A stretch of DNA of 64,000 nucleotides from an uncultured bacterium (GCA_963716985.1 OY970323.1:1664001-1728000); one strand, 5' to 3'; counted from the stretch's first letter, positions 5,029 to 62,474 are shown. Translations and numbers: made by a program. The notes: generated from the sequence alone by a model not told the origin.

Positions 5029-5316
5029 TCAATCTTCGGTTACGAAGGGTAGAAGAGCCATATAGCGGGCTCTTTTAATTGCCTTCTTTAAAATTTGTTG
5101 ATGAAAAAAAGATACGCCCGTAATACGCCTTGGCAAAATCTTTCCTCTTTCCGTAATGAACTGCTTCAAAGTTTCTATGTCTTTATAGTCAATCGCTTTC
5201 ACGTTGGACGCCGTAAAGGGACACTCCTTTTTCTTCTTTACAAATCCCCCTTCCGGCCCGGAAGCGGATGATGGTTTTTTAAAATCAGATGAATATGATG
5301 GTCCTTTTCCAAACAT
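5029..5316 (-). CDS. rpsR: 30S ribosomal protein S18
   Basis: [26 protein letters not shown]...[13 protein letters not shown]. Confidence 0.97.
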
Positions 5317-5321
5317 TGCCG

Positions 5322-5669
5322 TTACCTCTCCATGGGTTTGAGTGGTTTGAATTCCAAAGTCTCTAAAATCTTTTCCGTTCGCATCGTCATAAATCGAAGA
5401 AGATCTTCATGAAGCTGATAATCCTTGATCAGTTCTTTATGCTTGAGTGAGGGAAGGGAAAAATAGAGGAGATAGTAAAAGCCTTCTCTCTTGCCTCTGA
5501 TTTCATAAGCGAGGCGTCTTCTTCCTTGATCATGAGTCTTATGGATCTCGCCCCCTCTTTCGACAATGCCGTTTGTGATCTTATCCAAAGCTCTCTTTCT
5601 AGCTTCTTCACTAAGGGTTGCATTAATAATGTACATTCCCTCGTAAAGATACTTTCTTTCTTTTTTCAT
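5322..5669 (-). CDS. rpsF: 30S ribosomal protein S6
   Basis: [16 protein letters not shown]...GFYYL; native ATG at 5669. The ORF track's extra 16 N-terminal codons come from the inserted element. Confidence 0.95.
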
Positions 5670-5738
5670 CCTATTGACAGCGCGGAAACCCACTCCTTTA
5701 GGGGTGGGAGGAAGCACTGCTCCTTTGTTGTTAAGTTT

Positions 5739-5762
5739 AAAAACGGGGGGATTTCTCCCCCC
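5739..5762 (-). terminator. Intrinsic terminator-like hairpin 3' of the omega-RNA
   Basis: Minus strand GGGGGGA-GAAA-TCCCCCC-GTTTTT. Confidence 0.7.
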
Positions 5763-6017
5763 TAGCAGTTACCTGCAATCTCCGATTTCCCGGGTAAAGT
5801 TCCCCTCGCCAAAGTTATGGAGCGGTTTATATGTTAGCAGCACTGGTTTAACCCGTAAGCCTGTTTAACCACTAACCGCAGGATCCAGAACTGGGGTGGC
5901 ATTCCGGAGTGCCTATATATTCGCTCCTAACGTAGTCTCTAAATACGCAAGAGACTGAGGCTGGTCAACTTCAGGCCTGATTTCTCAAGCCTTTCCCTTC
6001 AGGGAAGGGTGGTTGAC
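5763..6017 (-). ncRNA. HEARO / omega-RNA (IscB guide RNA scaffold), orphan
   Basis: Motifs in the expected order: GTCAAC..GTTGACCAGCCTCAG, GACTACGTTAGGAGCG, ATAGGCACTCCGGAATGCCACCCCAGTTCTGGA, CTGCGG, GGTTAAACAG, CAGTGCTGC, AAACCGCTCCATAACTTTGGCGAGGGGAACTTTACC. Pairings GGAGCG/CGCTCC, AGTCTCT/AGAGACT and CCCC/GGGG are intact. The 3' limit is approximate. Confidence 0.88.
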
Positions 6018-6036
6018 TCGTCATTCCTCTTTCTAA

Positions 6037-6636
6037 CTAAATTTTTTTACGAGACCTATTGGCTCGATTCATTGCTTGCACAACTCCCTCTCTCAGCCAT
6101 AATGCAATGATCTCTACAGCCTCTTCCAAAATCCATGGAAGCGCTCTTTCCTCATCTTGGCTAAAGGGAGCCAACACATATTCCTCCAAACTTCCCTCTT
6201 CTCGCGGTCCGATGCCTAAGCGAAGCCTCGCATATGCATCACATCCTAAATGCATTTCAACACTTTGCAGACCCTTGTGGCCCCCGCACCCGCTATGTTC
6301 TTTCAGTCGAAATTCCCCAAAAGAGATATCCACATCATCCACAACCACAAGTAGCCGGCTCATCTCGATCTTAAAATAATCCATTCCACATCGGACCGCC
6401 TCCCCGCTCAAGTTCATGTAGGTCTCGGGCACGAGCAGAAAAACATTTTTTTCTTCGATTTTTCCGTTGGCTTGCAATCCCTTCAACTTGGGGGATTTTT
6501 TAAAACTCCAACCCCATTTCTTTGCAAAAGCTCCTACTGCCAGAAACCCCATATTGTGGCGCGTCTTCTCATACTCTTTTCCAGGGTTGCCAAGTCCTAT
6601 AATCAAGTAGTTAGAAGAAATCACCATCTCATGCAC
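6037..6636 (-). CDS. pth: Peptidyl-tRNA hydrolase
   Basis: LIIGLGNPG..YEKTRHNMGF, TYMNLSGEAV, GGHKGL, RLRLGIG. Confidence 0.97.
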   Translation of the reverse strand: MHEMVISSNYLIIGLGNPGKEYEKTRHNMGFLAVGAFAKKWGWSFKKSPKLKGLQANGKIEEKNVFLLVPETYMNLSGEAVRCGMDYFKIEMSRLLVVVDDVDISFGEFRLKEHSGCGGHKGLQSVEMHLGCDAYARLRLGIGPREEGSLEEYVLAPFSQDEERALPWILEEAVEIIALWLREGVVQAMNRANRSRKKI

Positions 6637-7192
6637 GCGGCTTTGTCACAAGAGCAACGACTTCTTGCATCTGTGCTAAGGACTTTACGCCTTTTGGAAG
6701 GACAATGTCTTTGACTCTTTTTGTATGTCCCAATTCTAAATGGGCCACATCGATCTGAAACGCTCCAGGAATGTCCTTTGGCAGACAGCTCACCCTAATC
6801 GATCGCATCGTCTGTCTCAAGAGTCCGCCCACCTTCACGCCAACGCAAGCCTCTTCCCCAACGCATTCGATAGGGACGGCAACTCTAACTTCCTTTTTTG
6901 GGGAAAGTTTTTCAAAATCCAGATGGATCACTTCATAACTCGTCACATCATATTGAATTTCTTTCACGATCGCCGAAAACGTTTCCTTTTCACTTTTCAA
7001 AGTAAACACGGTCGTCGACAAACGTCCCTTTTGCATCTCGTTCAAAATTTTATTAAAATCATGAGCGCTGAGCGAAATATTCTCATTTTCTTGGCCCTTA
7101 GCATAAATGATCGCTGGAATAGATCCTTGAATGCGAAGCTTTTTAATATCGCTTTTACCGGCTCTTTTTCGGTGAAATATTGCAAGTTCCAT
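6629..7192 (-). CDS. rplY: 50S ribosomal protein L25/general stress protein Ctc
   Basis: LRIQGSIPAIIY, HLDF, GVKVGG; lies between prs and pth. Confidence 0.95.
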   Translation of the reverse strand: MELAIFHRKRAGKSDIKKLRIQGSIPAIIYAKGQENENISLSAHDFNKILNEMQKGRLSTTVFTLKSEKETFSAIVKEIQYDVTSYEVIHLDFEKLSPKKEVRVAVPIECVGEEACVGVKVGGLLRQTMRSIRVSCLPKDIPGAFQIDVAHLELGHTKRVKDIVLPKGVKSLAQMQEVVALVTKPRA

Positions 7193-57339: not shown

Positions 57340-57965
57340 CTTACACCACCTCCGTGGGAGCCTAAAGGGGAAGTTCCTTTAGACTACCCGACTTTAAAAT
57401 CCCGCATTAGAAGCCCCATCGGCGATCGCATCATAAGACGGAAGGGCTATTCGTTTAATTTCGTCCAGTTGGTAGCTTAAGCCGCCTGCTTTTCCATGCC
57501 ATTTTTTGCCCGTCTCTTGTGATTTTTTCTGGGTCTCGGCAATTCCACCTTATCTAATAACCATGTGAACAGATCTCGAGGTTTTTGTTCGAAAAACCTT
57601 TCTGCCGCAGTAGTGCCATCCGCTCGTCGTATAAAAAAATTGTGCAACACTGTTAAGACCGTGAGTGTATGTGCAGTCAATCGCCGAAATGCATGGAATT
57701 TTAATGACAACTGGCCATTTCTACCCTCCACACATGAGCTCGATCGTTGAAAAATTTGGGCGCATTCCAAGGCTCTACGCCACCATTCTACCTGCATAGA
57801 GCAATTTATTCCGCCCCATAACAGATTCTGTTTGAGGCCTTCTTCCAATTTGCGTAAAGTTGTCTTTATCGCTTCTTTTCGGACCTTCTTTTTAGTTCTT
57901 TGCAAACAGAGCTTTAAGTACTCTATCGCAACAAGCTTCTCGAATAACTGCCCATGCCACTCATC
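57340..57965 (-). mobile_element. 3' remnant of a DUF6399-like transposase element
   Basis: FQRSSSCVEGRNGQLSL...LTVLHNFFIRRADGTTAAERFF...DLF (57477-57965); 5' part cut off at the IS630 end; outer end tentatively at CTTACACC 57340. Confidence 0.7.
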
Positions 57966-57975
57966 TAGTGCTCTG

Positions 57976-58098
57976 TCACCCTTTAATTTTAGGATAAATT
58001 GACTTGAGCTTATGCCGTGCATCACCAATAGTAAATTGCCATTCAACTCCTCGTTGCTTTGCATTTGTTTTGGTTGCCCATGCTTCGGTTTGTGTACG
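57976..58098 (-). pseudogene. IS630 transposase C-terminal piece, split off by IS66
   Basis: RTQTEAWATKTNAKQRGVEWQFTIGDARHKLKSIYPKIKG*; in frame with orfB after removing IS66 and one GTGTACG. Confidence 0.88.
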
Positions 58099-62067: not shown

Positions 62068-62474
62068 AATGACAACCTCTTATACCTGTAAAATTGCATA
62101 AGACGTTATCAAAATTTTCAATACTTATAATCCTAAATTTTAATTATGACAGAGCACTACCGTGTTTTTAAGATACCCACAGCAATTGGTGGCTTTTCCA
62201 CATAAATAGTCTTCGAGATAATCTAGCGATTTTTTTTCTGCTTTGCCCCAAGTAATCTCTCCTATTGTCATAAGAACTCCTTGCAAAGTGAAATTGATTT
62301 TTTTTGAAAAAGCATTTATCAATTTGAGAATATTTGCAATTCAAAATTTGGGAAAAAAGGCGACATTACAACTTTGCGCCTACACTTCTTAATTTTTTCT
62401 TTACATCAAGACATCGGCGCTTTAGTATTTTTTGCAGATTTTTATCAGAATAATTTTTTTTGGAGGTTTTTTTT

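Follow-up and report, generated by a model that had tools for sequence, protein, structure and literature searches.

A transposable element of 348 nucleotides (nt) without a protein gene sits between the Shine-Dalgarno sequence and the ATG start codon of rpsF, the gene for ribosomal protein S6, in the genome of an uncultured chlamydia-like bacterium (G000; 2.07 Mb in one contig, G000:C1). It lies on the minus strand of a 64,000-nt stretch of this genome (GCA_963716985.1, OY970323.1:1664001-1728000), which we call the window and to which plain coordinates refer. The placement is confirmed, and we consider it likely that the element is a gene-less derivative of the IscB-encoding ISC transposons (IS200/IS605 type) that inserted at the ATGA formed by the rpsF start codon and the next base, for which homing by an RNA guide together with ATGA as the target-adjacent motif (TAM) is the best explanation.

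The identity of the RNA carried by the element and both of its boundaries can be read directly. Its first part is an omegaRNA scaffold that matches the Rfam HEARO model (RF02033) over model positions 1-211 of 211 at 142.8 bits, where the cut-off is 83 (E 4e-31), and Rfam detects no other HEARO RNA in the window. The element runs from GTCAAC at 6017 to CAATAGG at 5670. The near boundary is fixed by 10 other HEARO copies in the genome, which start at or near GTCA or GCCA and are preceded by unrelated DNA, every copy with an intact near end beginning with GTCA (in one case GCCA); the far boundary is fixed by the far ends of the family, 22 of 23 of which stop directly before ATGA. The two junctions of the rpsF element share no repeated bases, hence there is no target duplication, and an earlier note on this DNA was right that an insertion without duplication separates the rpsF Shine-Dalgarno sequence from its ATG. 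This sequence, AGAGGA at 6030-6025, is followed by 7 nt within the 19-nt flank at 6036-6018, and the ATG at 5669-5667, with A at 5666, now stands on the other side of the element.

The same junction is free of the element in related bacteria. In G001, a genome of the same genus, the stop codon TAG of the upstream gene pth (peptidyl-tRNA hydrolase) is followed by a 14-nt spacer containing AGAGG, which lies 9 nt before the ATG, and then by the rpsF start ATGAAA. Furthermore, among 27 metagenome loci with close S6 relatives, the junction could be read in 22, of which all 22 are compact and 21 have an ATGA start, and neither the omegaRNA nor the end was found when looked for at the 27 loci; a search for closer metagenome relatives of rpsF gave 74% identity at best, no closer than G001. 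These element-free junctions identify the element as an insertion in this lineage, and with the empty sites in G001 and the metagenomes an ancestral arrangement or chance was rejected.

Target sites and start codons

The far ends of the family reveal where these elements land. Of the 23 far ends in this genome, all except the one at 1490447 are followed at once by ATGA, mostly as ATGAAA, and 20 of these 22 ATGs open a reading frame (ORF) of at least 79 amino acids (aa). In the proteins S6, Cdd1, RuvC, a GT2 glycosyltransferase, an SDR and an SDF symporter, the Pfam domain begins at residues 2-17, so near to residue 1 that the ATGs adjacent to the ends must be taken as true start codons. A crude gene call gave 1,748 ORFs; by it, start codons account for 3.6% of ATGA sites overall, and for 21-32% of those ATGA, ATGAA or ATGAAA sites located outside genes or at gene starts. 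Compared with the latter, lenient expectation, 16 of the 18 ends known at that point had landed on start codons (P of 1e-7 to 1e-9, a value that rests on rough gene starts), which exceeds the expectation from the motif far beyond chance. That an ATGA target biases insertions to gene starts, and that other copies also end at ATGA start codons, had both been anticipated, and both hold in this genome and, for 68 of 81 ends adjoining ATGA, in its relatives. Two further regularities were tried and abandoned: a bias for host genes on the lagging strand of replication (13 of 18, P 0.04) lost significance with four later, hand-placed ends (13 of 22), and an in-frame N-terminal extension of host genes from within the end is possible in some copies, the frame being closed in others, and is thus no feature of the family.

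A covariance model of the end detects it in 27 of 61 genomes searched in the same taxonomic family, and the family-wide data cover 104 ends in these 27. Outside G000 they consist of a non-exhaustive sample of 81 distinct copies in 26 genomes, made up of BLAST hits and 60 of about 100 model hits. Besides the 68 ends next to ATGA, 7 adjoin ATAA and 6 fit neither pattern; 52 of the 68 open ORFs of at least 75 aa or running to the end of the fetched DNA, and none of the 7 ATAA ends opens an ORF. This ATAA(A) sub-group (L104, L105, L108, L113 and L119 in G069, L114 in G055 and L121 in G011) is without GGAG before the outer helix of the end and stands as a natural contrast to the ATGA-type ends. The upstream DNA of 53 copies was classified with nhmmer and tblastn, by which diverged RNAs may be missed, as 35 solo ends (at least 400 nt checked), 14 ends behind an omegaRNA and 4 behind iscB. 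Among the ATGA-flanked solo ends, 25 of 28 open long ORFs. G001 carries only one degenerate end.

Several copies illustrate the target in other settings. Copy 3, which is gene-less (G000:C1 about 1919143-1919291), ends at an ATGA 4 nt before a tRNA-Glu/tRNA-Lys gene pair, so the ATGA rule holds even without a protein start. At both copy 4 and copy 5, the host ORF upstream extends 19 nt into the element (G000:C1:166141-166159 and 1491365-1491383) and terminates at a TAA that the first omegaRNA hairpin has in its loop, a gain of six residues for the protein; such read-in is expected if insertion took place at the ATGA stop/start overlap of coupled genes. At copy 10, the ATG adjacent to the end gives adk (adenylate kinase; L010:1930-2664) a hydrophobic N-terminal extension of 23 residues, and the Pfam domain begins at residue 34; the true start of adk may be an internal methionine.

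The element and its family

The genome contains 11 HEARO matches, of which the rpsF copy scores best. In copies 2 and 4, the omegaRNA is followed by an ORF of 442 aa with the Pfam domains RRXRR and HNH, and both ORFs match solved IscB structures (PDB 7UTN, 7XHT, 9K2Z and 9K30; E 1e-26 to 1e-37). These complexes, OgeuIscB among them, are alike in domains, and the RNA found here fits the HEARO model, although the relatedness of the proteins by sequence is modest. The two iscB genes differ at 45 nucleotides with a ratio of non-synonymous to synonymous differences (pN/pS) of 0.21, indicating that the protein has been under purifying selection. Six copies (1, 3, 5, 6, 8 and 9) are gene-less like the element at rpsF, about 350 nt long and have kept both ends; copy 10 has an internal deletion, and copies 7 and 11 are without the far (left) end. 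In copies 2 and 4 the iscB frame closes at a TAA in the loop of the far-end hairpin, which makes the far end the former 3′ end of iscB. A profile search for the far end yields 23 genomic copies in all, 9 attached to an omegaRNA and 14 solo (about 65 nt each), and the upstream gene is co-oriented for 8 of the 11 omegaRNA copies.

At the rpsF locus (Table 1), subterminal hairpins are present at both ends, and terminal inverted repeats and duplication are absent. The far end forms a 68-nt hairpin end in which CAATAGG (7 nt) separates a long two-tier hairpin from the ATG. From the cleavage point to the far-end hairpin there are 19 nt, and behind the near-end hairpin the distance is about 10 nt; both values agree with the spacings of IS608. 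With both ends kept and no ORF of its own, the element fits a PATE-like, non-autonomous IS200/IS605 derivative. The two small hairpins behind the Rfam model are conserved across copies and probably constitute the 3′ part of the omegaRNA; the downstream elements of omegaRNA are absent from RF02033, according to a preprint (Meers et al. 2023 preprint, 10.1101/2023.03.14.532601). Behind them stands an intrinsic terminator, on which the earlier note did not remark. It is found in the gene-less copies and not in the two iscB-bearing copies, and its stem varies with matching changes on both sides in copies 6, 8, s558371 and s1002778.

All genes around the element are encoded on the minus strand, ctc being followed by pth, rpsF, rpsR and rplI. 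The label pth follows gene order and the naming of the earlier note rather than a family search. For rpsF, Pfam Ribosomal_S6 matches residues 9-97 on profile positions 2-90 (E 2e-24), and the protein is 83% identical to its G001 ortholog, with the same start and a pN/pS of 0.15.

Table 1. Features of the element and its surroundings at rpsF (window coordinates).
Feature	Positions	Strand	Basis
Whole element, 348 nt, non-autonomous IscB-type (ISC) IS200/IS605, no protein gene	5670..6017	minus	boundaries from other copies
omegaRNA scaffold, Rfam HEARO RF02033	5794..6017	minus	Rfam match
First omegaRNA hairpin, also right-end hairpin of the transposon (transposase convention)	about 5990-6009	minus	fold
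Two small hairpins 3′ of the Rfam model	5763..5793	minus	fold; same sequence in copies 1-5, 7, 9, 10
Intrinsic terminator: 7-bp G/C stem, GAAA loop, GTTTTT tail	5739..5762	minus	terminator scan and fold
Left end (transposase convention), former iscB 3′ end	5670..5725	minus	alignment, relatives, fold
GGAG within AAGGAG, left end	5720-5725	minus	sequence
Outer helix, left end	5714-5720 with 5677-5683	minus	fold, pair counts
Inner hairpin, left end	5689-5708	minus	fold
Relic iscB stop TAA in inner-hairpin loop	5698-5700	minus	iscB frame of copies 2, 4
Guide-side flank, 19 nt of host DNA directly 5′ of the omegaRNA scaffold	6018..6036	minus	sequence
ATGA, rpsF start codon and next base; transposon target motif, predicted TAM	5666..5669	minus	end copies
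rpsF (ribosomal protein S6), 115 aa; then rpsR, rplI	5322..5669	minus	Pfam Ribosomal_S6
pth (peptidyl-tRNA hydrolase) ORF, upstream and co-oriented	6037..6636	minus	ORF list; ends 19 nt from element
pth stop TAG	6039-6037	minus	sequence

ISC elements have been described with 5′-GT(CA) ends, subterminal hairpins, no duplication and, in several families, an N|ATGA target, by Kapitonov, Makarova and Koonin (2016, PMC4810608). The elements studied here resemble ISC1-1_MA, ISC2-1_HM and ISC2-1_MS, which are likewise of the IS200/IS605 iscB type, with the GT(CA) end and hairpins, a position 5′ of ATGA and no duplication, and mostly non-autonomous. They differ in that the rpsF copy has lost iscB and gained a terminator, and in their host, a chlamydia-like bacterium. 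Judged by its ends and RNA, the element thus belongs to the known N|ATGA ISC group as a gene-less member. The words “start codon” do not occur in PMC4810608, while here most of the used ATGA sites are start codons, and no printed account of IscB elements landing on start codons was found in the literature searched.

Guide RNA, vacated site and proposed homing

The mechanism that we propose for the rpsF copy applies what is published for IscB to this site. According to a preprint (Meers et al. 2023 preprint, 10.1101/2023.03.14.532601), the IscB scaffold is made from the transposon's right end, the guide is encoded outside the element, transcription must begin outside, and the orientation of iscB is biased to match the gene upstream; once the nuclease has cut the donor joint, recombination restores the element, and gene-less PATE-like copies exist that need the nuclease in trans. 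The N|ATGA target, the identity of guide plus TAM with the donor joint, and the transcription of the guide from outside are therefore already in print. The Geobacillus IscB/TnpB elements of the IS605 family and their PATE-like relatives, as presented there, share with the present family the right-end scaffold, the external guide, the orientation with the upstream gene and the gene-less copies, as judged from sequence. The present elements depart from them in that the target motif coincides with start codons, that gene-less copies have a dedicated terminator and that solo left ends outnumber complete elements. For the dedicated terminator in guide-only copies and for solo ends abundant as gene leaders across a bacterial family, too, we found no account in print.

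The rpsF copy is best read as a gene-less derivative of an IscB-encoding ISC transposon which keeps both ends and the omegaRNA and has a terminator of its own; it inserted directly 5′ of ATGA without duplication, so that the host Shine-Dalgarno sequence now lies across the element from its ATG. The guide of an IscB omegaRNA consists of the host DNA that adjoins the scaffold on its 5′ side. Transcription from pth would therefore yield a guide corresponding to the ribosome-binding region of rpsF, with the start codon and the following A as TAM. The sole genomic target of such a guide would be the rejoined, element-free junction with its ATGA. If a Y1 transposase excised the element, IscB from either intact copy could load the RNA and cut the empty site, and recombination with the sister chromosome would restore the element after the cut. 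The two intact iscB genes could in this way serve the RNAs of the gene-less copies in trans.

The guides themselves agree with this proposal. Taken as 16 nt, they are unique in the genome except for the A-rich guide of copy 4, and that of rpsF, the last 16 nt of the flank, is among the unique ones; genome-wide, no guide match with up to one mismatch is followed by ATGA, and only a vacated site would thus be cut. The earlier note had taken the predicted guide to be the rpsF ribosome-binding site and had reasoned that excision would recreate a cleavable site. Both points are supported, the former because the RNA is a bona fide IscB omegaRNA whose guide position is occupied by the flank with the rpsF Shine-Dalgarno sequence, and the latter by the uniqueness of the guides, so that its inference, in effect the published mechanism applied to rpsF, is supported as far as sequence goes.

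Several observations weigh against this reading. First, the junction in relatives bears out the prediction in part: the arrangement of pth, Shine-Dalgarno sequence and ATG without the element stands in G001 and at 22 metagenome junctions, whereas the exact letters do not, as the G001 spacer differs from the flank here and shows the architecture rather than a letter-exact empty site. Second, ISC elements are recognized by an iscB gene, and the rpsF copy contains no ORF in 5670-6017; by its sequence features it is a non-autonomous derivative and not a full ISC member. Third, the TAM preference of the IscB in this genome is read from insertion sites and from nothing else. Fourth, because the terminator lies inside the element, between pth and rpsF, the genes rpsF, rpsR and rplI should be cut off from pth transcription, and a scan of 5300-6700 for sigma-70-type promoters gave 0 sites against 1.2 expected; expression of the rpsF operon, including S18, needs read-through, processing or an unrecognised promoter. 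Finally, a transposase with matching ends was not found in the genome: the two Y1 genes that are intact are part of an IS200-type element whose ends differ, and a third Y1 gene (tnpA) is frameshifted.

As candidates for the cognate transposase, the IS200-type TnpA and an IS605 remnant were rejected, because their ends are unlike those of the IscB elements. The two IS200-type elements (G000:C1 about 755320-757981 and about 1967700-1970733; L024, L025) are 99.96% identical, with no difference between their tnpA genes. Directly after the tnpA ATG, both contain a group II intron with a GTGCG 5′ end, an ORF of about 457 aa and a domain V-like 3′ part, and the intact IS200-type transposase would thus need splicing; the last ~264 nt of this intron are repeated at three further genomic sites. 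The IS605-type remnant (G000:C1:55054-57000; L026, L027, L062) consists of the frameshifted tnpA divergent from an open tnpB of 401 aa, with an end hairpin unlike that of the IscB family. A repeat of about 102 nt, unrelated to this family, is present in about 30 near-identical copies in the genome (e.g., G000:C1 758460-758562) and also in the window (about 57965-58017 and 62123-62159).

Alternative readings and significance

Homing does not say how rpsF is translated once its Shine-Dalgarno sequence has been displaced, and here an additional role of the left end has to be weighed, which would complement homing rather than replace it. A helix in the mRNA would bring the GGAG of the left end, which directly precedes it on the 5′ side, within the normal range of the start codon, the 3′ arm of the helix stopping 7-9 nt before the ATG. 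In phage T4, genes 38 and 25 have a split Shine-Dalgarno sequence that is thought to be brought into the range of the AUG by a bridging hairpin; here, by comparison, the hairpin is a transposon end of about 47 nt and the bridging is hypothetical. We tentatively entertain, as something short of an even chance, that the left end is a portable initiation module, by which the element borrows the promoter of a gene for its guide and the gene stays translated, the decayed ends of about 65 nt having become 5′ leaders of housekeeping genes. A replacement ribosome-binding site of this kind, if true, would explain both why insertions at start codons are tolerated and why solo ends (14 here and at least 35 in 26 related genomes) persist as leaders.

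The organism evidently uses Shine-Dalgarno sites, as the corresponding 4-mers peak five-fold at positions −15 to −6 genome-wide. In genes behind an end, that interval holds no linear Shine-Dalgarno sequence, since the last letters of the end, AATAGG, abut the ATG. Of the 68 ATGA-type ends, 64 contain GGAG or GAGG, as against 0 of the 7 ATAA-type ends, which keep the helices; the latter, on the other side, stem from three genomes only. Most of 22 folded leaders show the helix in their minimum-energy fold. In alignment A2, pairing amounts to 86.6% against 32-46% in slid controls, and 11 of 15 pairs change on both sides, a number reached by 0 of 500 shuffles, and in the model-fitted alignment A3 of 82 relatives, 292 cells show a two-sided change against 89 in shuffles. 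However, a Y1 transposase needs the same helices and a fixed distance to the cleavage site, and covariation can therefore not separate a function in RNA from one in DNA. Moreover, inner-hairpin mismatches fit better with pairing on the opposite, transposase strand (24 A.C against 8 G.T), the strand test for the outer helix being weak (7 against 3 without the terminal pair), and in solo ends the TAAA of the loop shows the same conservation as GGAG, which may therefore reflect no more than youth.

The genes behind the ends speak for such a leader as well. The abundance of long ORFs behind solo ends in the relatives has been given above, and the genes behind ends are conserved, with pN/pS of 0.15-0.26 against G001 for rpsF, an SDR gene and ruvC. 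In G001 the SDR ortholog likewise starts with ATGAAA and lacks the end; an AAAGGGA of its own stands 6 nt upstream. The ruvC gene of G000 appears to have adopted the ATG beside a solo end as its start (L033:601, compared with L060 of G001). This start is located 27 nt upstream of the position matching the G001 start, where G000 has no ATG. One solo end without the inner hairpin (G000:C1:1786751-1786818) retains AAGGAG, the outer helix and the spacing, with 8 nt to the ATGATC of a 475-aa ORF.

A second alternative competes with homing more directly: the family would be a fossil that is no longer mobile in this genome, the match of guide and TAM a by-product of insertion, and the rpsF copy merely tolerated. 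In its favour are the missing Y1 transposase with matching ends and the frameshifted tnpA, the single degenerate end of G001, and the extent of decay, with 14 solo ends and 2 copies without a left end against 9 complete end pairs. We judge it rather unlikely, for the iscB copies are intact and conserved in protein sequence, the rpsF copy has the best HEARO score of the genome, and the terminator and end helices keep their pairing through two-sided changes. Besides, copies at different loci are 83-86% identical, which implies that transposition went on for long, and a transposase acting in trans on dissimilar ends could still move them. Homing, with mobility in the present day as its conditional part, is preferred for these reasons. 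It is highly improbable that the host has domesticated the terminator-bearing omegaRNA as a regulator that uncouples rpsF, rpsR and rplI from pth, or as an RNA of its own, as a strong terminator-like hairpin between genes that are 14 nt apart in G001 might suggest, given that the same module precedes unrelated genes and a tRNA gene, that the insertion is absent at this site from G001 and all 27 metagenome loci, and that the genome offers the guide no further target.

The rpsF copy and its relatives offer a natural case of an RNA-guided transposon choosing a safe and well-transcribed home. ATGA is the commonest context of a start codon and also the classic stop/start overlap of coupled genes, and insertion at this motif does not break the reading frame and makes the guide part of a host transcript; that true starts are used beyond the expectation from the motif points to retention by transcription or by tolerance. 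For annotation, the ends mark true start codons. The two IscB genes together with nine natural guides make up a compact candidate for a system with an ATGA TAM. If the left end does supply a ribosome-binding site, its design could be copied for insertion cassettes that spare the entered gene from silencing, and many genes in these bacteria would be translated from leaders derived from a transposon.

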